A stretch of DNA of 64,000 nt, taken from NCBI GenBank assembly GCA_965205865.1, contig CBDBHR010000028.1:32001-96000 (forward strand), written 5' to 3'. Each line of letters begins with the position of its first letter. Position 1 is the stretch's first letter. The notes beneath the pieces were generated by a model. The model made no database searches and had not been told where the DNA came from. It saw only the letters and a program-made list of their open reading frames with translations. The translations under genes were made by a program, and so were the position numbers. This stretch comes from a bacterium. GTDB taxonomy: Bacteria > SAR324 > NAC60-12. Shown here piece by piece: positions 20,766 through 61,217 of this stretch.

Positions 20766-20876
20766 TTTCGCGTTTATTATGATATCAATTATGAGCAAGG
20801 CAGGGTTGAAGTTCAGGCGATTGGCATCAAAATTCGAGATAAAATATCCATTGCCGGAGAAGAGATCCCACTATGA
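20766..20876 (+). pseudogene. RelE/ParE-family toxin C-terminal remnant
   Basis: FRVYYDINYEQGRVEVQAIGIKIRDKISIAGEEIPL*, ATGA overlap with the antitoxin. Confidence 0.7.
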
Positions 20877-22244: not shown

Positions 22245-22314
22245 AATTACGGAGCTGTCTGTTTCGTCAACCCATTGAATCGGGGGATATCCACTGTGAC
22301 CACCGGCAGCGCTT

Positions 22315-22914
22315 CTAGAATACTTCCATTGCGCTGAAGTAGCCTTCGATACGAGATCCGGATTTACCACTTCGCCAGTTGCCTGCGAAACCATTGGTGC
22401 TGATCTCACCTACTTCCAGCACGGCGTAGGCGCCGTCGTAACGCCGGAGGTCACGCTGGTTTGCGATCGAGCCGAGTCTCAAAAGAATGCTTCGTTCACC
22501 GGCGTAGTTTCCCTCGAGCACGAGCGCGCCGGGAGCCTGCGGGTCTTGACTGGCGAGACTGCCGACGCGGTATGCGCCAACCGCTTTGATATCGACGTCC
22601 GTGAATCCATACAAAGGCGTTGACGCGCTGCCCGGCGATTCGAGTCCTTGCGGCTGCTTCCGCAGCGTGAGCTTACCCCGCACGGAGCGACTATCATTGC
22701 CATTTACGACCTCCACGAGCGTCAACTGGTAATTACCACTTCTACCCACCAGGGTCTCATCCGCACTAAGGCGCCCGGAAGTAGCCATGCAAGAATCCTT
22801 CCCTATCCGCGCCATCTCGGGACCATCTTGCGCAGTGGGTTTACCGGAGGTCCAGCATCCTACCAGCATAGTGAGGGCCATCGTCGTCAGGAATGCGTTC
22901 TTATACAAAACCAT
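22315..22914 (-). CDS. Hypothetical lipoprotein
   Basis: Signal peptide with LVGC lipobox. Confidence 0.55.
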   Translation of the reverse strand: MVLYKNAFLTTMALTMLVGCWTSGKPTAQDGPEMARIGKDSCMATSGRLSADETLVGRSGNYQLTLVEVVNGNDSRSVRGKLTLRKQPQGLESPGSASTPLYGFTDVDIKAVGAYRVGSLASQDPQAPGALVLEGNYAGERSILLRLGSIANQRDLRRYDGAYAVLEVGEISTNGFAGNWRSGKSGSRIEGYFSAMEVF

Positions 22915-29910: not shown

Positions 29911-31606
29911 CCTAAATCCTGCAATTGAATATTTTGATTGAGTTTCCCCCCACTCTTTGAGAGGTTTTTTTAAAAAAAAGGATTTGAGAGTTGAATTTCC
30001 ATCAGTCCTTGCTCATAAAGGTTTTTCCGCCCTCCATTAGATCGTCATATTTTGTGATGATCTGATACCCGCTTTCGCGGGCACAAGATTCAAGACGTAC
30101 TTCTCCCTGGATTTGGGAATCTACATCTCAGCAAAATGTATCCACTGGAGTGAAACAAAGGATCCAGGTCTCTCCAACAGCGACCCATGCATCCCATTGA
30201 GCATTGTAAAGTGTTCTTTCCGGAACTCTCAGTTTTTGTTGACGAGCGCCACTCGTCCATTTTCCTGCCATTCGGACAAGATAGGTGCGCATGGTGGCCG
30301 GTTCCCAACGGCGCAGTATTGCGTTACCACTACAAAGGGCCATCCAGCGCAGCGTGTTGTAAGCGAGTATCGCGCATTGGAACAAGGCACTGTTGGCCCA
30401 AAAATCGTCGGTTTTAATCTGAGCCAGCGCAGTTTGATTTTTTGCTTCCTCAATCCATGTCTCAGCGACCGCCCTTTGGCCATACTCTTTGTGAGCCTGC
30501 CAGGGAGTGAGCGCGTCAGTGAGAACATAACAAAAATAATCGTACTCCTTCATCTCAAAGAGGGTGGCCATCCCTTTGAGTTCCTCCTCTTTCTCCCTGC
30601 GTACGGCCATGAATTTTCTTGACCTCCTCCAAGTTTCACATTGGTGGGAAAACTCACACCCTTCCCAAGCGGGCTGCCCCTTCACTTTTTGCCATTTTTG
30701 GGTTTCCAACAACGAGACAAGCCCCTTGAGTTTGACCTTGATCAGATAGCCATGGCCTCGTTCTTCGAGGAAATCCAGCAAATCCCCCACAAAAAAACCA
30801 CTGTCTCCACGAAACAGAGTGCGAGTCCGATTTGGAAGGTGAGCGAGAAGTTGCCGCATGAATTCAACGACTCCATTGCTGGTATAGGCACTCCCATCAC
30901 GAAGCCAACCCTGAAGAATCTCCTTTGTCTCTGCGCAAAATGCCAGCAGAGGATGATACGAAGCTGCACCGCGTTTGTGGGGATTATATCCGACAGACAC
31001 TCCTTGCTGCTTGCCGTAGGCCGTTTTCACAGTGGAGTCCACGTCAATCACAAGACAGTGTAACACCCCAACGATGCTTGTCCCACTTCGAAGCGCCTTA
31101 CGCCAGATACCGGCTCGAATCCGATGGTTCAAGCTCTCCATCTCATTGATGTTTTTCTGTGTGAAAGTACGCAGTATCCGGCCGAATGTGGTTTCATCCG
31201 GAATCCTCAGCCAACCGGCCACACGACTCAAAACACGGTCGTTCCAAACTGTCACAATCGAACGAATCGAACGGGCGCCACCAACAATGCCGACCACCGA
31301 CAAAATGACCATGTCCACCGCGTCATAAAGACCCGTGGCGCCACGCCGATGATCTACGGTCTGCTCTGTCTTTGAAACAATCCCTTCTTTGTGAAAAAAT
31401 TTGACAACCGGAATCAAGCCTGCTTGCGCGGTCAGGTCTCTGCCTCCCTGGCTGATATGGATGTTTTTTGCTGTCGTTCTTGCCGATCTTGCGCTACCTT
31501 TGTTTTTCATGGTAATGGTGATCTCTTAAAATGTTGATTCTGGTGTTAACTATTTGAGTATATTACCATTTCCATGTTTGATTGTCATCTAATTGCAGGA
31601 TTTAGG
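29911..31606 (-). mobile_element. IS1380-family element, complete
   Basis: 16-bp TIR CCTAAATCCTGCAATT/AATTGCAGGATTTAGG, 5-bp TSD TATCA on both sides. Confidence 0.93.
30128..31510 (-). CDS. IS1380-family transposase
   Basis: LTAQAGL, IDVDST, GYNPHK, RGDSGF, RAVAETWIEEAK. Confidence 0.93.
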   Translation of the reverse strand: MKNKGSARSARTTAKNIHISQGGRDLTAQAGLIPVVKFFHKEGIVSKTEQTVDHRRGATGLYDAVDMVILSVVGIVGGARSIRSIVTVWNDRVLSRVAGWLRIPDETTFGRILRTFTQKNINEMESLNHRIRAGIWRKALRSGTSIVGVLHCLVIDVDSTVKTAYGKQQGVSVGYNPHKRGAASYHPLLAFCAETKEILQGWLRDGSAYTSNGVVEFMRQLLAHLPNRTRTLFRGDSGFFVGDLLDFLEERGHGYLIKVKLKGLVSLLETQKWQKVKGQPAWEGCEFSHQCETWRRSRKFMAVRREKEEELKGMATLFEMKEYDYFCYVLTDALTPWQAHKEYGQRAVAETWIEEAKNQTALAQIKTDDFWANSALFQCAILAYNTLRWMALCSGNAILRRWEPATMRTYLVRMAGKWTSGARQQKLRVPERTLYNAQWDAWVAVGETWILCFTPVDTFC

Positions 31607-32059: not shown

Positions 32060-32911
32060 CTATGAAAAAATATTTAGCGGTCCATCTTCGGCATGAGCCA
32101 AAAAGCGAATGTTCGCTCCACAATCCAGCGTTTTTTCCAACGGTGATGAGATTTTCTGTTTCAATTTGACCATGCGGATATCTCTCTCGGCTTGGTTGTT
32201 GTCAAAAGGAACTTGAAAGTCATGCATGAATAACAAGCTTTCCTTTTCATAGAGGATCAAACGATCGAGTAAATTTTTTGCTTTCGTCTGTTTGGGGCGT
32301 CCTCGTTTCTTTTTTTGAGGTTTTGCAGGATAGAGCTCGAGTGCTTCTTGGCTGATGTCGACGTTTAAGCGTGGCCTCAACCGTCACCTTGGATAAATCT
32401 TCTCCACAGGCTTCACAGGTGTTGACAATTCCACATGATCTGGCGATTCACTGAAAGCCAAATGATGGCCTTGATGACCGGGTTGACCTCCCACGATATA
32501 GTTTAATCGATCGTGTGGGAACCCTCCGCGAGAGCGATCCCTGCATTTACGTAAGCTCCTGCTCTTGCGACTTGCATCGCTGGAAGGAGGCTTACTCGAG
32601 TTTTGGCTGTTGAGAGCCAACTGATCCCGGAGTTGCTTATTTTCTGCTTCGAGAGCTTCAATACGCTTATTTTCTGTCTCGAGAACTTCAATACGTTTGA
32701 GGACTTCTAAGCGCTCTTGCTTCCATTGCTCACGTTCTTTTTCAGAGAGTAGACAGGCTTCTTGAACTTGAAGAGCCTCGAGCTGGCGAGTCGATGAAAT
32801 AGAATCAATATATTTTTGAACTTTCGAGAGCATAAAATCCTTTCTGTATTTTATGCTACGCAAAATCCGTGCTTAAATCGATGGGCCTTCTGAAGATATC
32901 TGAATAGTTAC
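32060..32911 (-). mobile_element. IS66-family remnant (broken transposase and GTAACTATTCAG end)
   Basis: [42 protein letters not shown]. Confidence 0.8.
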
Positions 32912-33302: not shown

Positions 33303-33584
33303 ATGGAATTTGAATGGGATCCAGAAAAGGATCGTCAGAATTTTCGAAAACACGGAGTTTCATTTGCCGAGGCAGCAACTGTATTTGCCGATTCGTTATC
33401 CTTGTCATTTTATGACCCGGATCACTCGATTGAAGAAGATCGTTACTTGATAATAGGCATGTCAGCAAGGGGGCGTTTGGTTATTGTCTCCCATACTGAG
33501 CATAACGACAAAGTACGAATAATTAATGCTCGTACACCGATAAAATCAGAAAGAATAAGTTATGAAGAAGGTGACAAATTCTAA
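33303..33584 (+). CDS. BrnT-family toxin
   Basis: MEFEWDPEK...N.RKHGVSF.EA, EDRY..IG, RIINAR. Confidence 0.9.
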   Translation: MEFEWDPEKDRQNFRKHGVSFAEAATVFADSLSLSFYDPDHSIEEDRYLIIGMSARGRLVIVSHTEHNDKVRIINARTPIKSERISYEEGDKF

Positions 33585-46561: not shown

Positions 46562-46750
46562 TTCTTCTCCTCTCATTTTAAAACTCACTTTCCCGGTATT
46601 TTGCGTTTTCCGCTCGTGTTTGGATAACTTCGTCCCACTGTCCCGCATCATATATCACACGGTTTTTTTTGATTTGACTTGAAAATAAGCTTAGCTTATC
46701 TATCAAAGAAAGCAACGCAATGGAAGAAAATATTATTTCAGAAAAGATGC

Positions 46751-49700
46751 ATGCCCAGAATCTTCGACAACATTGAACAAAAGCTCCGCCCCGTATTGGT
46801 GGAGACCATCAATGCGGCTGACCGGGCCGACTTTTGCGTCGGGTATTTCAATCTTCGTGGCTGGCGCTTGATCGATGAGCAGGTGGAGAAATGGGAAGGA
46901 GGCGAGGGCCGTTGCTGTCGTATCCTTGCCGGCATGCAACGGCTACCGCACGAGGAATTTCAAATGGCCAGCAGGTTCTCCGACGGCCAACCTTCTCTCG
47001 ACAATCAGACGGCACTGCGGCTCAAAAAAAGACTCGCGGAAGAATTTCGAGAGCAATTGACCACCGGCGCGCCCAGTAATGAGGACGAAAAGGGCCTGCA
47101 ACGACTGGCGCGACAACTCGAGGCAAAGAAGGTCGTGGTCAAGTTATTCCTCAAACACACGCTTCATGCCAAGCTCTACCTCCTCTTTCGCTCCGATCCG
47201 ATCAATCCGATCGTGGCATATTTGGGAAGCAGCAATCTCACCCAAGCAGGGCTCTCTCGTCAGGGTGAACTCAACGTCGACGTGCTCGATCATGACGCTT
47301 GTCAGAAGCTTGCCGGGTGGTTTGAAGATCGCTGGAACGAGCATTGGTGCGTCGATATCTCGCAAGAGCTTATTAAAATCATCAAGGAGAGTTGGGCGCG
47401 TGAGGAACTGATTCCCCCCTACCAGATTTACCTTAAGATCGCCTATCACCTCTCACAGGAAGCAAGGGCGGGTCTGTCTGAATTTCGCATTCCCAAAGAT
47501 TTCGGTAACAAGTTGCTCGAGTACCAGACCGCTGCGGTCAAAATCGCAGCGCATCACCTGAACAAACGAGGGGGCGTCATCATTGGTGACGTCGTCGGGC
47601 TGGGAAAAACGCTGATGGCCACCGCCCTGGCCCGCGTGTTTGAAGACGACCATGGATATGAGACGCTGATCATTTGCCCCAAGAATTTGGTTCCGATGTG
47701 GCAGGATTACAGCCAGCAATACCGTATGCGAGCTCATGTGCTGTCGATCAGCCAGGTCATCAACAAACTGCCTGACCTGCGCCGCTATCGACTGGTCCTC
47801 ATCGACGAAAGTCATAATCTGAGAAACCGCGAAGGCAGGCGCTACCGGGCAATTCAGGAATACATCCGGGAAAATGACAGCAAGTGCATCTTGCTCTCGG
47901 CGACACCATACAATAAAACCTATGCGGATCTGTCCAGCCAGCTTCGACTGTTCGTGCCTGAACATGAAAACCTGGGACTTCGTCCCGAACGATTGTTACG
48001 TGACATCGGAGAAACGGAGTTTCATGCCAGGCATCAAGCGCCAGTCCGCTCTCTGGCTGCGTTCGAGCAATCCAATTACGCAGATGACTGGAGAGAACTG
48101 ATGCGTTTGTATCTCGTCCGCCGCACACGCAGCTTCATTCAGGAGAACTATGCCACTACGGACGAGACCAATGGGCGAAAATACCTGACCTTTGAAGACG
48201 GTACGCGGTTCTATTTTCCGACCCGGATTCCAAAGACGGTCCGATTCCACGTCGATGAGCAATACTCCCGGCTGTTCGCAGACGACGTAGTGGAGGCCAT
48301 AAACGGCCTGCAACTGCCGCGCTATGGTTTGGGAAATTATCTCCTTTCGAATCCACGAACGCTTCCCACTGATAACGAGAAGAAGATTCTCGATGACCTC
48401 TCACGCGCCGGTAAACGTCTCATGGGTTTTTGCCGCACCAACCTGTTCAAACGTCTGGAGAGCAGCGGTCACTCCTTTCTGCTGTCGCTCGAACGCCATA
48501 TCCTGCGGAATTACATCTTTCTCCACGCGATCGAGAACGATCTTTCGCTTCCAATCGGCAGCACCAATGCCGGGCTTCTGGATACGCATTCCTTTGACGG
48601 GGACGCGGAAAGGACCACCAGAGATATTTTCGATATGGATGAGGATGATGAAAACGAAGAACCCAAAGCAACGACGAATCTGAAAACCGGGGATGAATTT
48701 CGCCATCATGCCGCTGAAGCCTACGCGCTCTTTGTCGATAAATACAAAAAGCGATTCCGCTGGTTGGCGCCGCATTACTTCGATAAGGAGTTCGGCAAAG
48801 ACCTCATGACTGACGCCACTATTCTCAGTAAACTCCTGCTCCGATTCGGCGAATGGCAGGCGGACCGGGATGCGAAACTCGACGCGCTGGAAAAAATACT
48901 CGTCGAAGAACATCCCATACGCAAAGTGCTCGTCTTCAGCCAGTTCGCCGATACGATACACTACCTGGAAAGACGGCTTCAGGAGCGTGGAGTAACGGAC
49001 CTGGCTGCGGTGACCGGAGACTCTGCGAACCTGACGGAATTGGCATGGCGTTTCAGTCCCAAGAGCAACGGAAAAGAAAATCGCATAGCATCTGACAATG
49101 AACTTCGCATTTTGATCGCCACCGACGTGCTCAGCGAAGGACAGAATTTGCAGGACTGCGCCATTGTGGTGAACTATGACCTGCCGTGGGCCATCATCCG
49201 CCTCATTCAACGCGTTGGTCGCGTGGACCGCATAGGCCAGAAAGCGGAAAATATCCTCTGCTGTTCCTTTCTTCCGGCTGAAGGTGTCGATCGCCTGATC
49301 CGTCTGCGGGAGCGAGTCCGGAAACGTCTCCACCAGAATGCCGAGGTGGTGGGAACGGATGAGGCCTTTTTTGAGGATGAGGACCAACAGAACGTGCTTG
49401 ATCTGTATAATGAAAAGGCTGGAATTCTGGATAATGACGCCGAGACGGACGTCGATCTTTCCTCCTATGCCTATCAAATCTGGCGCAACGCGACGGAAAA
49501 GGATTCATCGCTCAGGAAGATAATCGAGGAAATGCCCTCGGTCGTGTATACCTCGAAGGCATACGAGCAGAAGCCGGAACGGCCCGCAGGAGCGCTGGTC
49601 TATATAAAGACTGCGCAGGGAAACGACGCGCTTACCTGGGTTGACCGCAATGGCAATAGCGTCACCGAGAGCCAGTTCGAAATTCTCCGCGCGGCGGAAT

Positions 49701-50086
49701 GCGCGCCCGGTACCCCGGCCTTGCCTCGTCACCTCGTTCACCATCATCAGGAAAAACAGGTCGGTGGCCAACTCGGCCGCCCCGCGGGAGCCCGCTTCCG
49801 CACTTACGAGCGACTGAAGCAACACGCTGAACGGGTCAAAGACACGTTGTTCGATACCAAGTCCTTGCATCGCGCGATCGAGGATATCTATCGCTATCCT
49901 CTACGCCAGGCCGCGGTGGATGCGCTCAACCGTCAGTTGCGCAGTGGGGTTTCCGACGAAGCTCTTGGCGAATTGGTCGTCACCCTTCGGGATGAAGGTC
50001 GCCTTTGCATTGTCCATGACGAAGACGAACACCAGGAATTGCGCATCATCTGCTCCATGGGACTGACTGAAAAGAACGGGAACTGA
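46751..50086 (+). CDS. PLD-nuclease / SNF2-like helicase fusion
   Basis: LHAKLY..GSSNLT, GDVVGLGKT, IDESHN, SATP, QRVGRVDRIGQ. Confidence 0.9.
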   Translation: MPRIFDNIEQKLRPVLVETINAADRADFCVGYFNLRGWRLIDEQVEKWEGGEGRCCRILAGMQRLPHEEFQMASRFSDGQPSLDNQTALRLKKRLAEEFREQLTTGAPSNEDEKGLQRLARQLEAKKVVVKLFLKHTLHAKLYLLFRSDPINPIVAYLGSSNLTQAGLSRQGELNVDVLDHDACQKLAGWFEDRWNEHWCVDISQELIKIIKESWAREELIPPYQIYLKIAYHLSQEARAGLSEFRIPKDFGNKLLEYQTAAVKIAAHHLNKRGGVIIGDVVGLGKTLMATALARVFEDDHGYETLIICPKNLVPMWQDYSQQYRMRAHVLSISQVINKLPDLRRYRLVLIDESHNLRNREGRRYRAIQEYIRENDSKCILLSATPYNKTYADLSSQLRLFVPEHENLGLRPERLLRDIGETEFHARHQAPVRSLAAFEQSNYADDWRELMRLYLVRRTRSFIQENYATTDETNGRKYLTFEDGTRFYFPTRIPKTVRFHVDEQYSRLFADDVVEAINGLQLPRYGLGNYLLSNPRTLPTDNEKKILDDLSRAGKRLMGFCRTNLFKRLESSGHSFLLSLERHILRNYIFLHAIENDLSLPIGSTNAGLLDTHSFDGDAERTTRDIFDMDEDDENEEPKATTNLKTGDEFRHHAAEAYALFVDKYKKRFRWLAPHYFDKEFGKDLMTDATILSKLLLRFGEWQADRDAKLDALEKILVEEHPIRKVLVFSQFADTIHYLERRLQERGVTDLAAVTGDSANLTELAWRFSPKSNGKENRIASDNELRILIATDVLSEGQNLQDCAIVVNYDLPWAIIRLIQRVGRVDRIGQKAENILCCSFLPAEGVDRLIRLRERVRKRLHQNAEVVGTDEAFFEDEDQQNVLDLYNEKAGILDNDAETDVDLSSYAYQIWRNATEKDSSLRKIIEEMPSVVYTSKAYEQKPERPAGALVYIKTAQGNDALTWVDRNGNSVTESQFEILRAAECAPGTPALPRHLVHHHQEKQVGGQLGRPAGARFRTYERLKQHAERVKDTLFDTKSLHRAIEDIYRYPLRQAAVDALNRQLRSGVSDEALGELVVTLRDEGRLCIVHDEDEHQELRIICSMGLTEKNGN

Positions 50087-50087
50087 A

Positions 50088-53000
50088 ATGCCATCACCTT
50101 TCGACCGTAATAAAGTCAGAAAATATCTGCAGGATTTCACTCTCCAATCCCTGTTCATTTGTGAACTCGGCTGGGAGCACGGTGGCGTGGATGCGGAAGT
50201 CTCAGTCGCCGGCGAGACCTTTGCTCTCCAAGCCATTGCCCACAAACGCGGCATGGTCGCCTACCAGTGCATTGCAGAGACCGAAAATACTTTCCCCGAT
50301 TATCCCACTAGGCAGAAGATCGAAAAAGCCGTGGCAAAGATCGTCCACGAGCACATTATCGTCTACGTCTCACACGACCGGAACAGGCACTACTGGCAAT
50401 GGGTGAAGCGTCAACCCGGCCATCCCGGCAGAACGCGCCAGCACACCTATAGATCGGGACAAGCGGGAGAAGCGTTGATTCAAAAGCTGGAGCAAATCGC
50501 CTTCACCTTTGAAGAAGAAGAGAAGCTGACCCTCGTCGACGTATCGGGCCGAGTGCGGGCCGCCTTCGACGTCGAGAAGGTGACCAGGAAATTCTACGAC
50601 CGGTTCAAAAAAGAACACGACGTATTTCTACGATTCATCGAAGGAATCGAGAACGTGGCCGACCGTGCATGGTACGCCTCGCTCATGCTGAACCGCATGA
50701 TGTTCATCTACTTCATTCAGAAAAGGGGGTTTCTCGACAGCGACCCGCACTATTTGAGCAACCGTCTGCAACGCATGCAAACTGAGCAGGGTAGGGACCG
50801 CTTTCAGACTTTCTATCGCTTGTTCCTGTTGCGACTGTTCCACGAGGGACTGGGCCAACCCGAAACCGACCGTTCACCTGAATTAGTGGAACTGCTCGGC
50901 CAAGTCCCATACCTCAATGGCGGTTTGTTCGACGTCCACGATTTGGAGCGCGACAACCCGCAGATACATATCCCCGACATGGCCTTTGCCACCATTTTCG
51001 ACTTCTTCGACGCCTACCAGTGGCATCTCGACGACCGCCCGTTGCGCAACGACAACGAGATCAACCCCGACGTGCTCGGCTATATCTTCGAGAAATACAT
51101 CAACCAGAAGCAGATGGGGGCCTACTACACCAAGGAGGACATCACAGGCTATATCAGCCGCAACACCGTCATTCCCTTCCTTTTCGACCAAGCCGGAAAG
51201 CACTGTCCCATCGCATTCCAACCAGGCGGGGGCGTATGGCGATTGTTGTCGGGCGACCCGGACCGCTATTTTTATGAAGCGGTCCGCCACGGCATCAGCT
51301 ACGATATTCACACAAATGAAGAACTTGCGGACAGGCGCGAACTACCGCCGGAAATTGCCGCCGGGTTGCACGACGTCTCGAAACGAAGCGGTTGGAACAA
51401 GGCGGCTTCACGAGATTTTGCCCTGCCGACGGAGACCTGGCGCGAGCACGTCTCCCGTCGCCAGCACTATGAAACAGTTCACGACAGACTGTCCGCGGGA
51501 GTGGTCTCTTCGATCAACGAACTGATCACCTACAACCTGGACGTCGAGCAATTCGCCCGGGACGTGGTCACCTTAAGCGAGGGGCCCGAACTGGTGCGCG
51601 CCTTCTGGAAGACGCTCAACACGGTCTCCATCCTCGACCCGACTTGTGGTTCCGGCGCCTTCCTATTCGCCGCGCTCAACATCCTGGAGCCCTTGTACTT
51701 CGCCTGTCTGGCCGCAATGCGAGGATTCCTCGACGACCTTGAACGCTCCGGACGCAAGCACCACCCTGAGAAACTGAACGATTTCCGCAAGGTGCTGCAA
51801 CAGGTAGACGCTCATTCCAGCGAATCCTACTTCATTCTAAAATCCATCATCGTCGATAACCTCTATGGCGTGGACATCATGGCAGAGGCCGTGGAAATCT
51901 GCAAATTGCGGCTCTTCCTCAAGCTCGTCGCGCAATTGGAAAGTTACGAGCAGATCGAGCCACTGCCGGACGTCGACTTCAACGTCCGCGCCGGCAACAC
52001 CCTCGTCGGCTTCACTTCCCTGGAGAAGATACGGGAAGCCCTCACCATAACCAGCGACGGTCAACGAAGAATTCTCTATCCTGAGGATGAAGCCGAACTG
52101 CGTCGCCTCGAAGAGGACGCTGAAATCGCCGATCGCGCCTTCCACCGTTTCCGCGAAATGCAAACCGGACACGATATGGATGCCAGCGAATTTTCTGTCG
52201 CCAAATTGGAATTGAGAAAACGGTTGGATGGACTGCGCGAAGAGTTGAACCGCTACTTGGCGAGGGAATACGGTGTGGAGTCCACCGACAAAATTGCCTA
52301 CAAACAATGGCGGGACAGCCACCAACCTTTCCACTGGTTCGTTGAATTTTATGGAATTATGAGCAGCGGTGGTTTTGACGTGATTATCGGCAATCCACCG
52401 TATGTTGCAACGGGAAAGATTCGCAAATCCTACTCGGTGAGGAATATGGAAACTGAGGGCTGCCCCGACGTTTATGCTTGGATACTGGAGCGTACGGCAA
52501 ACCTGCTTAGCGACAAGGGACGTTCCGGAAAGATCGTACCGTTGAGCCTCGGCTTCAGTTCCCAGTTTGATGTTTGCCGAAAATTCCTATTTCGTCATTA
52601 CGAGCAAAATTGGTTCTCATCCTTTGGCAGAATCCCCGATGCTCTATTCAGTTTTAACGTCCGGGTCCGTAATACCGTTCATCTCGGGCACAGATCGGCT
52701 GATCCAAGAGTCTCCTATTCTACGCGCCTCCATCGCTGGTACAAGGAAGCGCGTGCACTGCTATTTGACAACATCCAGTACGTTCGTTTTCAGCCTAAAC
52801 TATGGGATCACCGCGTACCCAAACTGAATACGCAACCGCTTGCACAAGCCTTTGAATCGGCTCTTGAGCGCGGAAAGACGCTGGAACTCACTTTGCAACG
52901 CGTGACAAATCACAAACTGTACTTCAAGCAGACCGCCTACAATTGGCTTACCGTTTGTCGTATACTTCCCCCCTGTTACGAAGGAATGCAACAAGTTCCT

Positions 53001-53405
53001 CACTCGAAGGTAGCGGATCTTTACTTTGTGGATGCCAACACTCGTGAGCTTGCGATGCTGCTCGCGAGTGGCAAGCTGATGTTGGTTTTTTGGCTCGTGA
53101 TTGGTGACGATTTTGATGTAACGAGATCGAACCTCGCTAATTTTCCCGTGGACTTTGCCAGCTTACCCGAAACGACAAAGAAAAGCCTTTTGTCTATTTT
53201 GCCAGACTTGGAATCTGCTATGTCGGCTTCCATTCAGTACAAGGTGAATGCAGGCCTGCGCGTCGGTACATATAACTTGGCGAAATGTCGGCATGTGACT
53301 GACCTGAGCGATGCGCTGTTTGCATCGGCAATAGGATTCGACAACGTATTGGAGGACATTGATCTATACTACACCCAAGCGATAAAAACCGATTTTGGCA
53401 AATAA
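50088..53405 (+). CDS. Eco57I-like N6-adenine DNA methyltransferase with TRD
   Basis: PYLNGGLF, GAYYT, ILDPTCGSGAFL, LYGVDI, FDVIIGNPPY. Confidence 0.9.
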   Translation: MPSPFDRNKVRKYLQDFTLQSLFICELGWEHGGVDAEVSVAGETFALQAIAHKRGMVAYQCIAETENTFPDYPTRQKIEKAVAKIVHEHIIVYVSHDRNRHYWQWVKRQPGHPGRTRQHTYRSGQAGEALIQKLEQIAFTFEEEEKLTLVDVSGRVRAAFDVEKVTRKFYDRFKKEHDVFLRFIEGIENVADRAWYASLMLNRMMFIYFIQKRGFLDSDPHYLSNRLQRMQTEQGRDRFQTFYRLFLLRLFHEGLGQPETDRSPELVELLGQVPYLNGGLFDVHDLERDNPQIHIPDMAFATIFDFFDAYQWHLDDRPLRNDNEINPDVLGYIFEKYINQKQMGAYYTKEDITGYISRNTVIPFLFDQAGKHCPIAFQPGGGVWRLLSGDPDRYFYEAVRHGISYDIHTNEELADRRELPPEIAAGLHDVSKRSGWNKAASRDFALPTETWREHVSRRQHYETVHDRLSAGVVSSINELITYNLDVEQFARDVVTLSEGPELVRAFWKTLNTVSILDPTCGSGAFLFAALNILEPLYFACLAAMRGFLDDLERSGRKHHPEKLNDFRKVLQQVDAHSSESYFILKSIIVDNLYGVDIMAEAVEICKLRLFLKLVAQLESYEQIEPLPDVDFNVRAGNTLVGFTSLEKIREALTITSDGQRRILYPEDEAELRRLEEDAEIADRAFHRFREMQTGHDMDASEFSVAKLELRKRLDGLREELNRYLAREYGVESTDKIAYKQWRDSHQPFHWFVEFYGIMSSGGFDVIIGNPPYVATGKIRKSYSVRNMETEGCPDVYAWILERTANLLSDKGRSGKIVPLSLGFSSQFDVCRKFLFRHYEQNWFSSFGRIPDALFSFNVRVRNTVHLGHRSADPRVSYSTRLHRWYKEARALLFDNIQYVRFQPKLWDHRVPKLNTQPLAQAFESALERGKTLELTLQRVTNHKLYFKQTAYNWLTVCRILPPCYEGMQQVPHSKVADLYFVDANTRELAMLLASGKLMLVFWLVIGDDFDVTRSNLANFPVDFASLPETTKKSLLSILPDLESAMSASIQYKVNAGLRVGTYNLAKCRHVTDLSDALFASAIGFDNVLEDIDLYYTQAIKTDFGK

Positions 53406-53464
53406 AAGGTTAGCTGACGAAGGCGCTAGGAGATCCGATATGTGACAACGGGACGGGTCACGCC

Positions 53465-53602
53465 GACAAGTTTGATCAGAAACCTTTAAAACCCATCGTT
53501 GACGAAATTGACCGAGTGTTCACACAGCAATACAGCTTCACGGACGAGGAGTTGGATTACATCATCAACTACGACATCAAGTACCGGATGGCAATTTGCT
53601 AA
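53465..53602 (+). pseudogene. Orphan alternative C-terminus of the same MTase family
   Basis: KPIVDEIDRVFTQQYSFTDEELDYIINYDIKYRM*. Confidence 0.7.
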
Positions 53603-53704
53603 GTCATACGAGACCATGAGCGACTTGACAAAACACGCGTGGTAAACTCGAAAAAACAGGATTGTCAACAGCAGGGCTCCGACTCCTATAGATCGGAAGT
53701 GAAA

Positions 53705-55105
53705 ATGACAGAATTTTTCAGATTCAGAAGTATAGAACAGTTGCTAGGAGATAAATACCAGGAGCTTGAAAGGCTAACTATCTACTTCGCCAGTCCTGAG
53801 GAACTCAATGATCCCATGGAAGGTTTCCGGGACATTGTGTGGAGCGGAGACAAAATTGTCTGGACCAATCTTTTCAAACATTACGTTCACTGCCTTTTTT
53901 TGACATATGTTAATTTTCAAGTAATTGGGGACACTACCGATTTGAAAGTCGTCGGCATCCCAATTTGGGGACGGTGGGATGAACCACTAAGCCCTCAAGC
54001 AAAAATTCAGTTTGATAACATCTGGGATAGGGTCTTCAATAAATGCGGACTAAGTAGACTCATTGAGAAAATAGTGAATATGAAGCGCAAAGTCAGACAC
54101 AATGAGCTACTGATTTATCTCTGGCCTATACATATTGATGTTGTGTTAGAAATCCAAGCAGAACTTGTTAAGCATGGTCTATTAACAGAATTAAAACTTC
54201 CACCACTTGGAAAATTACCCAGCGTAAAACAGTTTAACAAGATTTGTTTCTTTGAATCAATGGGACAGATTTAAGACAAAGAACTCATTGAAGTTTTCTC
54301 TTTATTTTCTCAATTAGTGTATCAATTAAAAATTGAGATGCGGCTTGTTTATAACAAAAATCGTACAATTGCTCCAGGAGTTCTAGAAAAGAACATGCAA
54401 CGGGTGTTAATCGATTTTCTCGAGATGTATGTGAAACGAATCGAGATCCTGCTTTGGCCCCAATGGTACACTGCTTGTTTTATGGGAAACTACCACAACT
54501 CGTCCGCATGGGGGCATTACGGAGGTGGCCATAAAGGCGTGTGTTTGATCTTTGAGGCTGTAGAATCGGATAAATCAAACAGCTTGGCATTGGATGGTTC
54601 CCCGAGGACTTTCTATGAGGTCAAATATGTGGAGAAAGCAGCTGAGATTTACTTCTTTCGGTCTATTGGTACGCTGCCAGAAGCCAAGCTGATGAATTTA
54701 TGGTATAGCGATCAAGATGGTAATCTCAGTGAATGTGGCAACCATATTGGAAAGGATGGTGACATTGACTCATGGAGGAAAAGCTATTGGGACGACTTTT
54801 ACGACTCAATCAGCATTAAAACCAAAGATTGGAACTATGAGCAAGAGCACCGGTTGATCTTAGATGGTCTACTCGGAAATCTCGAGAAAACGCAACGAGC
54901 CCTGAACTACGATTTCAACTCGTTGAAAGGTATTATTTTTGGAATGAGAACATCCGAAGAGGATAAGTTGAGAATTATTGAAATAATTAAACGGAAGTGC
55001 ATGGAAGAGAACCGTATTGACTTCAAGTTTTTTCAGGCCGACTACTCTCATGAGAGTGGCGACTTTCGCAAATATGAGATTTCTCAGATGTTTTCTGGTA
55101 CATAA
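53705..55105 (+). pseudogene. DUF2971-like protein with in-frame TAA at 54272
   Basis: FASPEELNDPMEG...WGHYGGGHKGVCLIF...KTKDWNYEQEHR; both halves in the same frame. Confidence 0.75.
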
Positions 55106-55291: not shown

Positions 55292-56218
55292 ATGCTGGTA
55301 TTTGACCTATTCTCGAAACGCCAAAAGAAACTTCGAGGGGATATCCCTGACGTCTATGTTTATGACGATTTGCCTGATCCTCTTAGAGTAAAAATTGTAC
55401 AAATCTGGTTGAAGACTCTTGGCAATGAACAACAAGCTATGTATGGAAATTATGTTTACGAACAAATAGTAGAAATCCTAAGGCATGAATATGGTGTTTT
55501 TCAATTACCAGTTACAAAAATGACTCCTCAGAACGCTTGTCAAGAGTTTGTAAATTTCTTCCTCCAAGAGAATGATATCGAAAAGGCTCTTGATGCAGTA
55601 GAGTTGTCATTTCGTTTAATAGATGGACCTACGAGAGAGTGGCAATACCTAAAACGACATGACGCTTCAGAAAAAGCAGATGACGCAATAGAAGAATTAA
55701 ATTACAGGTTCAGGGAGCATGGCATTGGTTATCAATTTTCGAATGGACAAATTATTCGCATGGATTCCGAGTTGATTCATGCCGAAATTGTTAAGCCTGC
55801 TCTCGAGTTGCTCAACCAACGTTACTATGCCGGAGCACAACAGGAGTTTTTGAAAGCGCACGAACACTAACGGAAGGGGAACGCGAAAGAAGCACTCAAT
55901 GAGTGTCTCAAAGCGTTCGAGAGTATAATAAAGGCAATTTGCGATAAGAGAGGCTGGAAAAATTTTAAAAAAGCAGCAGCAAAAGACTTAATAGAGGTGT
56001 GTTTTGACAACGACTTGATCCCATCGTTTTGGCAATCGCACTATTCATCCTTGAGAAATATTTTGGAGAGTAGTGTACCTACCGGTCGCAACAAGTTGAG
56101 TGGGCACGGTCAAGGTACAACTCCGGTATCCGTGCCAAATCACCTTGTTGCGTACATGTTGCACATGACGGCATCAGCTATTGTATTTCTGGCTGAAGCC
56201 GAAGAAAAATATCCATGA
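55292..56218 (+). pseudogene. STM4504/CBY_0614-like (AbiJ-N-terminal related) protein with in-frame TAA at 55868
   Basis: DLFSKRQK...EFLKAHEH*RKGNAKEALNECLKAFES...GRNKLSGHGQG. Confidence 0.75.
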
Positions 56219-56515
56219 TGACAAGCATAGGCATTGTTGCTTAAATAAAGTCGATGAGAAAACCTTTCCTTGTCCTTCTTATGCTTTGCGGGATTCCAGA
56301 ATTTCCAATATAATTTTTAAAGCACATCAAATCAAATTTTCGGTCACGTGATTGTCGAAGCGGGAGGCTCCGACCGGCTTCAGGGAATGCAAACAGTTTG
56401 GGTCAACAAGAGTTAACGACCGACGGTTACATTTTCCTTGACATCAACCGTCCATATGTTGCCTGGGCAACCTATCGAAGCGTGCTTATAACTCCCCCGA
56501 ATATAAAATAAGGAG

Positions 56516-57435
56516 TTGAGTCCGGCACAAAAAAGGAAGCTGTCCGATGTTTTGCGAGTCAAGGATGAAGGAGAGGCAGTCGCAGAGACACTTGAGAAGC
56601 GCATCAGCGGGGGCGGGCACTGCCCTCATTGCAAGCATAATCAATTTCAAAGGTGGGGAATATCACACGGGATGCAACGCTACCGTTGTAAAAGCTGCCT
56701 GAAGACCTTCAACGCAGCCACGGGGACCCCCGCGCGCCTGCGGAAAAAGGAGAAGTGGTTGGAGTATTCCAAGGCGATGGTTAACGGCCTGAGTGTCCGC
56801 AAGGTGGCCAGAAAATGCGGGATCGACAACAGCACCAGTTTCCGGTGGCGTCACCGTTTCCTGCATGGCTTGAGGGACAAGAAGGACAGCAGCCTCAAGG
56901 GGATAGTCGAGACCGACGAGACCTTCTTCCTGGAGTCGTTCAAAGGTTCGCGGAACCTGGGGCGCACAGCTCGCAATAGGGGCGGCAAGGCCACGAAGCG
57001 GGGGTTGTCGGCGGAGCAAATCCCGGTTCTGATCGCAAGGGACCGCCACGGAGAGATGACGGACGAAGTGCTGAAAGACCTCAGCGAAGTCTCGATCACC
57101 AAAGTGCTCAAGCCTGTCTTGGCACAGGATGCGGTCCTTTGCACGGACGGGAACAAATTTTATCAGGCATTCGTGGACACTGAGAACATCGCGCATGTCC
57201 GGCTGATCGCCTCCAACGAAAGCAGGGTCATTGACAAGGTCTATCACATTCAAAATGTCAACGCATATGACAGCCGTTTAAAAGGCTGGATGCGCCGATT
57301 CAATGGGGTTGCAACAAAATACTTCCCGAATTACTTGGGATGGAGGCGATGCCTTGAAAAACAGGGAAATTCAATCGCAGCGGTGACCTATCTCCATTGT
57401 GCTTTGGAGTGACAAATACTAAACGCAAATAGAGC
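56516..57435 (+). mobile_element. IS1595-family transposase (56516-57412) with right end
   Basis: CPHC..RYRCKSC Zn ribbon, VETDETF, LCTDG, HIQNVNAY.SRLK. Confidence 0.88.
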
Positions 57436-57525
57436 AAAAAGATTGATTCTGATAATAGGATTTGCTAATATTCAGTATCTATTAAGTTACCGGACTGTAC
57501 AAATACAAGCACATCAAAATAAATG

Positions 57526-57553
57526 TTGACAGAATCGAATTATGGGCTATACT
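57526..57553 (+). promoter_or_regulatory. Sigma70-type promoter
   Basis: TTGACA-16 nt-TATACT; RBS GGAGG before ATG 57596. Confidence 0.7.
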
Positions 57554-57595
57554 GCTCATTTAATGTAATTAATTTAAATTCACGATGGAGGGAGC

Positions 57596-58051
57596 ATGAA
57601 CACTGATCAAATCATCAAAGAAAACAAGAATCTAAAAAATCTGGTAAAATTTTATGAAGACGATATTGAAGCTCATAAGATTCTCTTTGAGAAATATATG
57701 GATCTTCTTGAGAAATATAAAATAATTTTTATTGAAGAAGAAATTATAGATATTGAAGTCAAAAAGGACAAAATTACAAATATCAAAAAGAAAAGGCCAG
57801 TACCTTCTGGGATCCATTCATATTTAAAGGAACATGGAGGACCAGCTACAATTGAAGAAATTAGACAAGAATTAGTTCAAAAAGGAATTGGAAAATGGAA
57901 GGATGAGAATACTGGAAACCGAGCAGTTAACATGTCCACCTCTCGAAATAAAAATTTTAAACTCATCTCAGACAATAAAGATATCAAACTTAAAAAATAT
58001 GCACTGGTAGAATGTGAGGATGAAAATGAGAACGTGAATAAGGAAAGCTAG
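57596..58051 (+). CDS. AT-rich hypothetical protein, possible coiled coil plus winged-HTH
   Basis: Clean ORF with RBS; YLKEHGGPATIEEIRQELVQKG resembles a wHTH start. Confidence 0.6.
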   Translation: MNTDQIIKENKNLKNLVKFYEDDIEAHKILFEKYMDLLEKYKIIFIEEEIIDIEVKKDKITNIKKKRPVPSGIHSYLKEHGGPATIEEIRQELVQKGIGKWKDENTGNRAVNMSTSRNKNFKLISDNKDIKLKKYALVECEDENENVNKES

Positions 58052-58179
58052 CGTTATTCCTTATTCACGAAAAATTATATTTAACTTCAACCTCAAACAA
58101 AGGATATCTCAATGTGGAAGAAAAGAAGATAATCAGTTCGGCCTTTCTACTGAAAAGATGAAAGGTCGAACCAAAAAAC

Positions 58180-58264
58180 GAAGAGCATCGCAACATGGTT
58201 GTTGCTACTGATTGAAAATCAGATGATACTGCAGAGTTATAGGGTTCGATTCCCTTGCTCTCCG
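58180..58264 (+). tRNA. Non-canonical (8/4) allo-tRNA-like gene, anticodon GAA, Ser-type body
   Basis: 8-bp acceptor, 6-bp D stem with TGGT loop, loop TTGAAAA, long variable arm, 4-bp T stem, discriminator G. Confidence 0.72.
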
Positions 58265-58284
58265 TATCTTTAAATAATGTAAGA

Positions 58285-58356
58285 GATAGGATAAGCAAAA
58301 GGTTACGGAACTGGACTGACACTTCAGATCAGTGGGTTCGAATCCCACTCCCCAGA
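58285..58356 (+). tRNA. Degenerate tRNA-Val(GAC)-like gene
   Basis: CTGGA-CTGACAC-TTCAG and GTGGG-TTCGAAT-CCCAC intact; acceptor and D arms mispaired. Confidence 0.55.
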
Positions 58357-58443
58357 AAATACAATACGGCAACGGACGTTTTGTTTCATGGTAGCATGCC
58401 GATTTGCTTCGCAACTCACCGCACATAAGACGTAAGACGAGAG

Positions 58444-58915
58444 ATGGCGCTCGAGGAGGTTCGAGTTCAACAATTCCCTGAGAGAGTATCACGGTTAAAC
58501 GGGATATTTTGTTTCCCGGACAGCGAGGTTGCAACCGACGTTGCTCATCATTGGGGAGGCCACTTTAAGATAGAGAACCTGGCTGAGGTCAATCTTCTCG
58601 AGGCTAAAGGAAGAGATCGGTTGGATTCCAACTGGATTACCTACGCTGGCTCCAATAAAGTTCTCCCTTCGGATGCGTGGATACCGCGTTATTGGCGAGG
58701 AGAACCCTATCCTGGCAAAAAGCCAATTTGGGAAACGCTTGTCGAAGGCAAATTAACGGTACTTGGTACAGATCTTCGTAAGCAGGCATACGAAATTGTG
58801 AGAGCTAATTGGCCTGATAGCTTCATGTTTTCAGAAATCTCCCGGCTAGGTGCTTGGGTCGGCTCGGACATCGGAAGCATGAGTGTTTTCATGGCAGAGG
58901 ATATGGAAAGTAAGG
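58444..58915 (+). pseudogene. Hypothetical protein fragment (DUF2441-like)
   Basis: LEEVR..QFPE.VSRL.GIFCF motif; 3' end cut by IS remnant. Confidence 0.45.
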
Positions 58916-59264
58916 AGATTTCCTGACCTTTTTTACTATGACCCGCTGCTCCGCTCCAGAAAGAATCGATGCCATAGCTCTTCTTGCCACTTTTGGAGAT
59001 AAAAGAACAATCAATGGCGGCGATCTTCTGGTGAGGGGAGGGAATGGTTTCTTCGATGAGACGATGGTTAAACTCAGCAAAATCGAAGGACTTGCGAAAA
59101 TAGCGTAAGCAGGTCATTTCGCTCAAATCACTGTAACGACTGAGGTTGCGCAAGTTCATTCTGCCTCTCAAAACGATGATCGTTGAAAAAAGGATCATCA
59201 AAAATTTCTTCTGAGGTCTCGAAACGTTGGACATTTGCGATAGAATTCGATCAACTATGCTCAT
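58905..59264 (-). mobile_element. DDE transposase N-terminal fragment (IS701/IS4-like)
   Basis: GRMNLRNLSRY...AIDCSFISKSGKKSYG...WSG. Confidence 0.7.
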
Positions 59265-59606
59265 AGAGTACTCCTGGGTTGAAATGAAAATTTCGTATGG
59301 AAACAAAATTCTCTCAACCCGGTGTGCTCTTGTCCAATCTTTTCTTATCTCATGCAAAAACTGTTAGAACTATTGTCTCGAGGTATTGGTAAGCTATTGT
59401 TTCGAAAGTATTGCCCGAATCTCTCCTGCTCTCAAAGCGCCTGAAACAAAGGCTCAACGAAATCGAGACCCATGGGCTCGCCTCACTTTAGTCGTAGGCT
59501 GTTTTGCGTGTCATTTTCACCTCCTTTCTCAGGCATGTTGTTAACCAGTTTCAGCAGCTTTCACCGCAATCCCAAGGGCTCGCCCAAGGATTCGTTTCAC
59601 TATGCA

Positions 59607-60210
59607 TTACTTGTGAGCCCTGGCCTTGAGTTTGTTGATGGCTTTCTCAACCGACTTCGTGCGATGGACCCTCATTCGGCCGACGCCACCCCTCAATCTC
59701 GGGTCGAGCAGGTCTCTCAAAGCATCACCGAAAACGTTTATCCCGAATACAACGATGCTCAGGACGACACCCGGCCAGATAGACATCCACGGCGCCAGCA
59801 ACATGTAACGCCGACCGCCAATACTGAGCATCCCACCCCAGCTGGGAGCGGGTGGCGGGACACCATAGCCGAGGAAGCTCATCGTCGTCTCAGCTATGAT
59901 CATATAGCCGAGGGCTGCGGAAAATATGACGATTATGGGAGTGGTGATGTTGGGAAAGACATGCAGGAAAAGGATCCTCACATTACTACGGCCAATAGCC
60001 TGTGCGGCAGCTATATATTGGCTCTCCTTCAATCCAATGACGGCGCTTCTGACGATTCTCGAGTTACGGATACCATTGATCAGACCAAGCACGATGATTA
60101 CCTGGAGAAGGCCCGGCCCGATAACGGCTATGAGACCCGGCACAATGACCAGCCACGGGAAACTCATGGCGGCATCGACGAACCTTCGGACCAGGATGTC
60201 GATCTTGCCA
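59607..60210 (-). pseudogene. Second DppC-like permease, 5'-truncated
   Basis: HVFPN, SFLGYG, GDALRDLLDPRLRG; N-terminal third missing. Confidence 0.75.
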
Positions 60211-60245: not shown

Positions 60246-61217
60246 TTACCCGTTGAAAGGGTTGATCAGACGGGCCAGGAGGCTTCTTTTGCGTTTCACC
60301 ACCGCGGTGCCGTAACTGCCCTCACCACCACGAAGTCGGGGGTCGAGCAGGTCCCTGAGGGCATCTCCGAACATGTTGAGGGAGTAGACGATAATCGTCA
60401 GGCAGAGCCCCGGCCAGAGCGCCAACCAGGGCGCCTGCTCCATGTACTGACGCCCTTCAATGCTGAGCAAACTTCCCCAGTCAGGACTGCCGGGGGGCAG
60501 CCCGAATCCGAGGAAGCTCAGCGAAGCCAGGCTGAGGATGTGGCCTCCGATGCTGATGCTGAAAACGATGATGATGACCGGCATAATATTGGGTACGACA
60601 TGACGGATCAGGGTTCTCACTCTTCGGTTGCCAGTCGCCTCTGCCGCCAGAAAGTAATCATTCTCCTTAATGGCTATCACGGCGCCTCTGATGACTCTGG
60701 ATCCGCCGATGCCTCCGGATATCCCCAGGACCAGGATGATCTGGGGGATCCCCGGCCCCACGATGGACATGATCGTTAGCAACAGGATCAGTCCCGGGAA
60801 AACTATCCAGGCATCGACAACCCTCTGCACTATAATGTCAAACTTACCCCCAATGAATCCGGAAGTGCCGCCGATCAGGGTACTGATCACCGTACTGAGC
60901 GCGGTGATGGACAGACCGATCAGGATGGAAAGACGACCCCCCAGGATCAGGCGGCTCAGGAGGTCCCGCCCGATGTGGTCGGTCCCCAGGAGATACTGGG
61001 CGGATGAGCCCTGAAACCGGTCTCTCAAGTGTATTTTATCAGGGGGATAAGGGGTCAGCGCATCGGCAAAGATCGCCACCAGAATCCAGATCAAGATGAT
61101 CATCCCGCAGACAGTACCCAGCGGCTTCTCCCTGACCAGCCTGATCAAGAATTCCGCCAGCCTGCTACGTCTCTTTGGCTCGATTACTGGTAATGGTATC
61201 CCTGTGGCGTCACTCAT
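60246..61217 (-). CDS. DppC-like permease
   Basis: LLGTDHIGRD, HVVPN, GDALRDLLDPR. Confidence 0.92.
   Translation of the reverse strand: MSDATGIPLPVIEPKRRSRLAEFLIRLVREKPLGTVCGMIILIWILVAIFADALTPYPPDKIHLRDRFQGSSAQYLLGTDHIGRDLLSRLILGGRLSILIGLSITALSTVISTLIGGTSGFIGGKFDIIVQRVVDAWIVFPGLILLLTIMSIVGPGIPQIILVLGISGGIGGSRVIRGAVIAIKENDYFLAAEATGNRRVRTLIRHVVPNIMPVIIIVFSISIGGHILSLASLSFLGFGLPPGSPDWGSLLSIEGRQYMEQAPWLALWPGLCLTIIVYSLNMFGDALRDLLDPRLRGGEGSYGTAVVKRKRSLLARLINPFNG

Follow-up and report, generated by a model that had tools for sequence, protein, structure and literature searches.

We analysed a stretch of 64 kb of bacterial DNA, hereafter the window (contig CBDBHR010000028.1 of GenBank assembly GCA_965205865.1; G000:C28:32001-96000 in our collection), and in it a short interval which holds a promoter-like site, an open reading frame (ORF), two hairpins and two sequences related to transfer RNA (tRNA), the first of them an (8/4) allo-tRNA with the anticodon GAA. 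A first-pass annotation made from the sequence had read these elements as one regulated cassette, in which a nucleic acid-binding protein controls irregular tRNAs, and had named a prophage relic or a decayed phage tRNA array as its fallback. The features of the interval, in positions of the window, are the following; nt stands for nucleotides, bp for base pairs and aa for amino acids.

57526-57553, + strand: sigma-70-type promoter-like site, TTGACA-16-TATACT, with 11 of the 12 consensus bases
57587-57594, + strand: Shine-Dalgarno-like GGAGGGAG, read from the sequence, with the ATG at 57596
57596-58051, + strand: ORF151, 151 aa, GC content 24-38%
58033-58069, + strand: hairpin 1, 13 perfect pairs, with the TAG stop of ORF151 (58049-58051) in its loop
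58136-58171, + strand: hairpin 2, 12 pairs including one G-U, ending 8 nt before the tRNA
58180-58264 (85 nt), + strand: (8/4) allo-tRNA, anticodon GAA; called by ARAGORN at 58179-58265 as tRNA-Phe(gaa), 87 nt
58285-58356, + strand: tRNA-Val(GAC)-like pseudogene or fragment, its 5' third degenerate and its 3' two-thirds intact-looking

The allo-tRNA has an acceptor stem of 8 bp (9 if C58179 pairs with G58264) followed by two linker bases, a D stem of 6 bp (GCAACA/UGUUGC) closed by a UGGU tetraloop, an anticodon loop UUGAAAA, a variable arm of 16 nt with weak pairing, and a T stem of 4 bp with the loop UUCGAUU; in the 8/4 register the discriminator G73 is G58264. The Rfam tRNA-Sec model recovers this fold in an end-to-end alignment at 46.1 bits, against a cut-off of 47, a score that is not diagnostic because ordinary class II (Leu, Ser) tRNAs of related genomes reach 41-48 bits. 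The same fold was obtained by minimum free energy folding of the single sequence and by RNAalifold on 26 sequences, which confirms the allo-tRNA of the first-pass annotation. Thus the 8+4 bp acceptor branch, the tRNA-Sec-like D arm and the long variable arm that define an allo-tRNA are all present, and the serine identity elements (G73 and the long variable arm) are joined to a non-serine anticodon, GAA, with charging by serine being predicted. The anticodon is not one of those of serine (GGA, GCU, CGA or UGA) found in the phage-type (8/4) tRNA-Ser, and judging from its sequence we class the allo-tRNA(GAA) as a derivative, not a member, of that group.

Two mismatches interrupt the stems, an A:C at acceptor pair 2:71 and A27:A43 in the anticodon stem, and as sequence features they argue for a reduced translational activity. 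CCA is encoded neither in the allo-tRNA nor in the tRNA-Val-like piece behind it; it is encoded in 8 of 8 host tRNAs inspected.

The 23-nt T arm and 3' acceptor strand of the allo-tRNA were found exactly in 58 public loci (8 viral contigs and 50 metagenome loci), a number that includes duplicates: L047 and L089 are one and the same contig range, and several others are near-identical. ARAGORN called a tRNA-Ser at 26 of these loci (gct 18, gga 6, cga 2), a tRNA-Sec at 20 and a tRNA-Ala at one; by eye, the 11 loci left uncalled comprise four more Ser(GCU), three allo-tRNAs whose anticodon is GAU, a pair of Sec-like genes, one cut by the contig end and one bare 3' fragment. The serine loci are arrays for the most part, with at least three tRNA genes within 1.5 kb at 22 of 26, while at all 20 Sec loci the tRNA stands single. 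All eight viral contigs carry a tRNA-Ser (gct, cga or gga) at the match, and seven of them have 3-11 tRNA genes within 1.5 kb.

The nearest relatives of the allo-tRNA are Ser(GGA) and Ser(CGA) genes, with 78% identity, the best Sec gene reaching 75%. In three of them, the Ser(GGA) genes L044, L046 and L050, the 15-nt anticodon stem-loop CTGATTGGAAATCAG differs from that of the window only at the middle base of the anticodon. For RNAalifold the window sequence was aligned with 25 distinct Ser-type relatives out of 30, five identical or near-identical ones being omitted; the 8/4 cloverleaf came out unaided, with compensatory changes at 12 of 24 pairs, although covariation is impossible for the acceptor and T pairs of these sequences, one strand having been fixed by the search pattern. 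The D arm of the window lies one column off in the alignment, and the D-stem counts of that row, being artefacts, were left unused. Among the 26 rows the window is the only one with A:C at alignment pair 2:90 and the only one with A:A at 32:48, that is, its two stem defects are its own.

The phage-array tRNA-Ser(GGA) genes L044 and L046, both from IMG/VR, allow the closest comparison. They share with the allo-tRNA the 23-nt strand, 78% identity overall, the lack of CCA and an anticodon stem-loop identical save for one base. They differ in the anticodon (GGA, against GAA in the window) and in the D arm, of 4 bp with a large loop against 6 bp with a tetraloop; the variable arm of the window is unlike theirs and pairs more weakly, and the window tRNA does not lie in a phage genome and has a dead tRNA as its only companion.

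Other searches with parts of this region returned little. An exact scan of viral contigs with the D arm of the allo-tRNA found nothing; the DNA of 58100-58450 gave one 30-nt match at chance level in phages and none in plasmids; and the 331-nt stretch from hairpin to tRNA, searched in the 87 other genomes of the phylum, gave only T-arm-sized matches, to the tRNA-Ser(UGA) of class relatives. Three metagenome loci (L054, L080 and L090), without an ARAGORN call, hold the GAU (Ile)-anticodon allo-tRNA-like genes that share the 23-mer, and at L062:1501-1523, on a 725-kb metagenome contig, the 23-mer stands alone without a tRNA body, a bare 3' fragment that is possibly an integration scar. The host genome has two further odd ARAGORN calls, an 89-nt 'tRNA-Pro(cgg)' with poor stems (G000:C29:633713-633801) and a 72-nt 'tRNA-Ala(agc)' (G000:C30:913280-913351) in which the D stem has 3 bp, the anticodon stem has 6 bp and CCA is not encoded. 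A possible array of Sec- or allo-like tRNAs was noticed in another genome of the family, 12 Mb in size: on one of its contigs the tRNA-Sec model has four matches of 81 nt, at 44.8-48.2 bits, in a span of less than 4 kb (G006:C418:2279-6151).

The second tRNA-like sequence is of two unequal parts. From 58311 to 58356 it has a 5/5 anticodon stem, the loop CUGACAC with U33 and A37, a 4-nt variable loop, the T arm GTGGG-TTCGAAT-CCCAC, a 3' acceptor strand and a discriminator; from 58285 to 58310, U8, A14, GG and A21 stand in register, the D stem is broken and only 3 of 7 acceptor pairs form, which is the background level. This bears out the earlier description of a tRNA-Val(GAC)-like gene with a broken acceptor: the anticodon and T arms of a canonical tRNA-Val are there, and its 7-bp acceptor, its D stem and recognition by a tRNA finder are not. 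ARAGORN makes no call even at relaxed thresholds (ps60), and in Rfam the best hits are Tymo_tRNA-like at 17 bits and the T arm of tmRNA at 14 bits, with no hit of the tRNA clan extending past the T arm. Among 21 T-arm-like motifs outside the tRNA genes of the genome, it alone has a 5/5 anticodon stem with a canonical loop at the right distance, and because of this, and because acceptor and D stem are broken, we take the piece to be derived from a tRNA and not working. Between the allo-tRNA and the presumed 5' end of the piece there are about 20 nt, a normal spacing for an array.

No host tRNA matches the piece as a parent, it has no second genomic copy and no 5' partner strand nearby, an exact scan of viral contigs with two pieces of it found nothing, and five viral records had no match. 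We rejected the idea of an attachment (att)-site duplicate of a host tRNA: the tRNA-Val(GAC) of the genome is unrelated, and a second copy is lacking. A truncated 5' half of a third tRNA had been suggested at 58374-58407 (+ strand); neither ARAGORN nor Rfam gives a hit there, and the fold of 58355-58440 is ordinary (z 0.08, with 96 of 200 shuffles as good), and we treat this DNA as spacer.

ORF151 was compared with 1.84 billion representative proteins and has two full-length relatives only, P0002 (48% identity, 149 aa) and P0006 (30%, 155 aa). A near-identical copy (P0001, 99%) was also among the matches, and P0003-P0005 (626-3100 aa), which match in many short stretches, were set aside as low-complexity. 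ORF151, P0002 and P0006 have a common C-terminal half with the end motif K-K-[YF]-[GA]-L-x-E. An AlphaFold2 model from this 3-row alignment has a mean predicted local distance difference test score of 75.9 and is confident over residues 68-141: a long helix (residues 3-46), possibly a coiled coil, which in the model would suggest a dimer, precedes a helix-helix-helix-strand-strand domain (residues 68-141). With two full-length relatives and this confident domain we consider ORF151 a real gene.

Searches with the model agree with the winged helix-turn-helix (HTH) protein that had been put forward, as far as residues ~68-141 are concerned. All top matches in Foldseek are winged helices (best E 0.036), and those in VIA-align as well, with a best Z of 7.8 that is typical of the best score for models without a clear match. 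The best structural match is 8x6g_E, a chain in an RNA polymerase complex, which we take to be the delta subunit. Pfam gave sub-threshold hits only, to TFIIE_beta (E 0.0049), to HARE-HTH (PF05066; E 0.1, 13.5 bits against a gathering cut-off of 25.9, matching in one of the three family members) and to a HigB-like family (E 0.29). A lead to HARE-HTH came from the Atlas too, and the likeness lies in three helices followed by a beta hairpin and in the shared C-terminal motif; the structural scores (Z 7.8, Foldseek E 0.036), in contrast, stay at the level of a generic fold. No match was found in PHROGs, PADLOC or NCBIfam, a search of the PDB with the 3-member alignment gave nothing below E 0.056, and the gene was not found in the 60 genomes of relatives that were searched. 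On this modelling ORF151 is a near-orphan with a generic winged-helix domain, a fold that stands without membership in a family.

The link between this protein and the tRNAs, on which the proposal of one cassette with a protein in control depends, finds no comparative support. None of the 58 related tRNAs has a gene like ORF151, P0002, P0006 or ORF160 (the right neighbour of the interval, described below) within 1.5 kb, the best E being 0.85, and none has a copy of either hairpin within that distance. Five whole viral records have no match to the ORF151 family, searches of genome, metagenome and viral contigs with ORF151 or its alignment returned nothing, and neither did phage and plasmid records queried with P0002; the DNA that encodes P0002 or P0006 turned up in none of these collections. 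On our reading the winged-helix ORF and the tRNA remains would form no conserved system, and probably arrived together.

The near-consensus promoter is the sole site with at least 11 of 12 bases on either strand of the 64 kb, such sites occurring genome-wide once per ~78 kb of strand, and in shuffles of 57436-58180 one arises in 163 of 5000 (3.3%). It probably drives ORF151. On the + strand no promoter-like site was found in the interval between the ORF and the tRNA. The two hairpins, including the one over the stop codon, are as they had been described, each folding at -19.1 kcal/mol with a stability equalled by none of 200 shuffles (z -6.7 for hairpin 1 and -6.3 for hairpin 2). Both stems run into A-rich sequence and have no U tract behind them; a scan of 57000-59000 found no terminator-like site, and neither hairpin qualifies as an intrinsic terminator. 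Between the hairpins lies a mini-ORF of six codons (58113-58133, MWKKRR) with an AAGGA box 8 nt upstream. We dismissed it as probably due to chance, the box being altered in other populations (58102 G>A, 58105 T>G).

The interval stands between mobile and broken genes, of which the nearest are these.

56511-57435, + strand: IS1595-family insertion sequence (IS), transposase ORF 56516-57412; left neighbour, outside the cassette
58444-58926, + strand: ORF160, 160 codons, DUF2441-like; right neighbour of the cassette
58707-59357, - strand: DDE_5 transposase fragment (Pfam DDE_5, E 4.6e-7, limited to profile positions 56-140 of 272); it overlaps ORF160 at that gene's end

GC content is 24-39% over 57400 to ~58250 and ~50% from 58300 on, the genome average being 48%, and the cassette is placed at the right end of a low-GC defence island. 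The transposase on the left has the Pfam domain DDE_Tnp_IS1595 (E 6e-13) as well as a zinc ribbon and a helix-turn-helix. Five more copies of this IS element exist in the genome, with identities of 93-95%, and they do not have the cassette because their homology stops at 57435/57445; for the same reason we ruled out that the allo-tRNA is cargo of the element.

ORF160 matches phrog_5663 (E 3e-9) over profile positions 71-169 of 175, which is the C-terminal part, and in the Atlas, by features, it scores 0.93 with DUF2441 clusters as 29 of the 30 hits. A six-frame match to PF10386 (16.7 bits, the Pfam cut-off being 25; E 0.018; profile positions 49-86 of 141) passes through a TAA. It had no Pfam match at E<=1 in plain hmmscan, and none either in a tblastn search of phages or in the 60 relatives. 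Its sequence suggests that it is probably a 5'-truncated remnant of a DUF2441-like gene, and DUF2441 belongs to the ADP-ribosyltransferase clan according to the part of PMC7955679 that deals with it. In another population 7 nt are deleted at 58426, just 5' of ORF160; one of the contigs diverges past 58534.

Further to the left, the core of the island (46679-53405) encodes a PLD-SNF2 helicase of 1135 aa and an Eco57I/MmeI-type methylase of 1105 aa; a 211-aa protein assigned to no family and a DUF2971 protein (PADLOC PDC-S31) follow in the core taken to 55105 (46679-55105). An AbiJ-like gene is apparently split: AbiJ_NTD4 at 55292-55870 (E 4e-23; PADLOC PDC-S32) stops at a stop codon, and the C-terminal DUF7014 (profile positions 67-135 of 137) is in a separate 73-aa ORF at 55997-56218. 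To the right, an OppC-type permease fragment of 186 aa (59607-60167, from profile position 28) lies beside a full-length paralogue (60246-61217). With the AbiJ-like gene split, ORF160 and the permease truncated and DDE_5 reduced to a fragment, this neighbourhood shows decay. The complete genome G001, of the same genus, has no counterpart of 46.6-60.2 kb of the window and regains synteny at ~60232. Phage structural or replication genes were not found around the locus, whose setting is a bacterial chromosome.

As for the wider surroundings, a genome of the same genus has tandem copies of the OppC-type transporter operon, and toxin-antitoxin and mobile genes abound in the window as a whole (MazF/PemK, Phd/YefM, BrnT, IS110, DDE_Tnp_1_4 and IS66 fragments; the coordinates listed for these genes are 6006-6359, 20873-21145, 33303-33584, 17747-18973, 30128-31510 and 32060-32863). 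An integrase gene is found at 21231-22409.

The stretch or part of it is held by 20 runs from 10 studies. Contigs from RNA libraries (two metatranscriptome runs, both from a single study, and a third run that is RNA only by guess) cross the junctions of the locus: one contig (57969-58279) bridges the end of the ORF, both hairpins and the tRNA, and others extend over 58014-58316 and over 58142-58371, the latter from hairpin 2 across the tRNA to include all of the second tRNA-like piece. Such contigs fit co-transcription and do not show regulation; they cannot prove a single transcript, as such libraries may contain DNA, and the missing cover at 57448-57708 and past 58371 is uninformative.

Variation between populations was also seen. 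A DNA contig from another population spans 57355-58500 with 17 substitutions and the 7-nt deletion at 58426, and the changes in ORF151 there (F45L and V69I) are conservative and the same as in P0001. In the allo-tRNA of that contig the sole difference is 58186 C>A, which breaks a further acceptor pair and occurs in both metatranscriptome runs as well; it is the commoner allele in two RNA-library runs and one DNA run.

We consider it on balance probable that the locus is a relic, left by a mobile or phage tRNA array and accompanied by a small winged-helix gene, with at most a marginal or accidental function, so that of the proposals made at the outset it is the fallback that we favour, both by the tRNA-Ser arrays in which the relatives lie and by the stem defects. 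The defects make weak or no activity likelier, and therefore the locus is best read as a relic. A foreign origin is supported by the lack of an encoded CCA, the low GC, the absence from relatives and the synteny gap in G001.

On this relic reading, a low-GC scrap would have been acquired horizontally and would have landed at the decayed edge of a defence island, between the IS1595 copy and the truncated DUF2441-like gene. In the allo-tRNA one change at the middle base of the anticodon would have turned GGA (Ser) into GAA (Phe codons UUC/UUU), the (8/4) Ser-type tRNA would have gained its two uncompensated stem mismatches, and the tRNA-Val(GAC), deprived of its 5' acceptor strand and of its D stem, would be dead. 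Transcription from the promoter of ORF151 may pass the two hairpins, which have no U tract, into the tRNA region. If the 85-nt tRNA were processed and CCA-tailed, seryl-tRNA synthetase would be expected to charge it because of G73 and the long variable arm, the enzyme ignoring the anticodon, and serine might be placed at Phe codons at a low level.

Several observations weigh against a relic. In the allo-tRNA, U33, A37, the GG of the D loop, the T loop UUCGAUU with A58, G73 and 7 of the 8 acceptor pairs are intact, and the D stem, with its 6 bp and tetraloop, is longer than in the nearest phage relatives, which resembles canonical allo-tRNA design and not random decay. According to PMC5389517, allo-tRNAs active in E. 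coli are marked by anticodon switching on a constant Ser body, so the change from GGA to GAA need not be damage. The tRNA-Val-like piece is flawless in its 3' part and broken in its 5' part, a sharp contrast that uniform point decay would not predict. The promoter and ribosome-binding site of ORF151 are strong, 15 runs have the stretch or half or more of its sampled words, and RNA-library contigs together cover 57709-58371, bridging the end of the ORF, the hairpins, the allo-tRNA and the tRNA-Val-like piece. Moreover, both hairpins are unchanged in the one other population with a contig across them while the spacer between them has three changes, a difference that is not significant at ~1.5% divergence.

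Some of these same observations would suit two independent functional genes, the alternative that survives best and one that we hold to be unlikely. ORF151 would then be an ordinary small regulator or a defence accessory, and the allo-tRNA(GAA) would work without being controlled by it, either as a low-level missense decoder that puts Ser for Phe or as a regulatory non-coding RNA, as proposed for acidobacterial allo-tRNAs. Intact tertiary nucleotides and anticodon loop, an 8/4 fold with its long D stem, RNA-library contigs over the tRNA and the GAU-anticodon relatives with the same 23-mer (L054, L080, L090) are all what a working allo-tRNA would show, and allo-tRNAs with non-Ser anticodons are described as inserting Ser efficiently in E. 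coli in the pertinent part of PMC5389517. However, such a gene would have to tolerate two uncompensated mismatches unseen in 25 relatives and, where the commoner allele elsewhere is concerned, a third defect in the acceptor; it would also lack a + strand promoter-like site of its own after the ORF, and the tRNA adjoining it is dead.

A regulated toxic-tRNA cassette, which we judge distinctly improbable, comes closest to the original proposal. Here ORF151 would repress its own promoter and the hairpins would attenuate read-through, and upon derepression a Ser-tRNA(GAA) would mistranslate Phe codons in the manner of a toxin-antitoxin or abortive system. The layout itself is suggestive, running from a strong promoter through an ORF of DNA-binding type and hairpins without U tracts to the tRNA, with RNA-library contigs bridging ORF and tRNA; the defence island provides the DUF2971/PDC-S31 and AbiJ-like/PDC-S32 genes as company; and the corresponding passages of PMC5389517 report that induced Ser-charged allo-tRNAs with Leu anticodons arrest and kill E. 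coli and that allo-tRNAs are often near toxin-antitoxin genes. Against this, the pairing of ORF and tRNA was not found a second time (0 of the 58 related tRNA loci), ORF151 is a near-orphan without a match in PADLOC, PHROG or NCBIfam, the neighbouring genes are broken, and the tRNA is destabilised and drifting further in other populations. The particular form in which the winged-helix protein and the hairpins limit read-through until control is lost, for example by phage infection, and an RNA toxin is released as in abortive infection, is in our opinion very improbable. Finally, a relic of a counter-defence decoy, in which phage tRNAs are or once were retained as substitutes or sinks for the host tRNAs that anticodon nucleases attack, is in our view most improbable: the nearest relatives do lie in phage tRNA arrays and phage tRNAs are reported to help evade tRNA-targeting defences (PMC10264068, PMC11555353), but the setting is a bacterial chromosome without phage structural or replication genes around, the anticodon no longer fits the body of the tRNA, and nothing points to a cognate nuclease.

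Much of what is seen here is already in print. The (8/4) allo-tRNA class, which includes phage and bacterial (8/4) tRNA-Ser, was described by Mukai et al. (Nucleic Acids Res 2017, PMC5389517; reviewed in PMC7609411), and the relevant sections of that paper also cover non-Ser anticodons, pseudogenes with stem-destabilising mutations, polycistrons of irregular tRNAs and links to transposons and toxin-antitoxin genes; the published allo-tRNAs put Ser at Leu codons in E. coli. The allo-tRNA of the window agrees with those in its 8-bp acceptor, 4-bp T stem, long D stem with tetraloop, long variable arm and G73, in the non-Ser anticodon on a Ser-type body and in having transposons, toxin-type genes and an irregular tRNA nearby; it differs in its A:C and A:A mismatches, in the winged-helix ORF upstream and in the two hairpins. 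One allo-tRNA with a GAA anticodon is listed in the supplement of the same paper and, as far as that entry goes, has the 3' acceptor strand GCTCTCCG in common with the window tRNA, by eye. The phylum of the host is a small one, with 88 genomes in our collection.

The allo-tRNA polycistrons of Mukai et al. (2017, Fig. 4) are alike by description, having a second irregular tRNA-like sequence close behind and toxin-type genes nearby, and RNA-library contigs span both tRNA sequences of the window. The published tRNA0/1/2 cloverleaves, as they are presented there, are complete, if odd (G-1, E-loop), whereas the second member in the window lacks its 5' acceptor strand.

The locus would gain a larger importance if the tRNA were charged and active, or if both relatives of ORF151 stood upstream of odd tRNAs; with either finding, a protein-controlled mistranslating tRNA could be put to a direct test. 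If it is a relic, the locus is an ordinary one and enlarges the class described in 2017 by an allo-tRNA whose anticodon, GAA, is a rare one. Even so, with a phage-array (8/4) tRNA-Ser only one anticodon base away in the anticodon arm, it shows plainly a way in which such tRNAs can originate, and it shows that scraps of phage tRNA arrays can land at the edges of defence islands.

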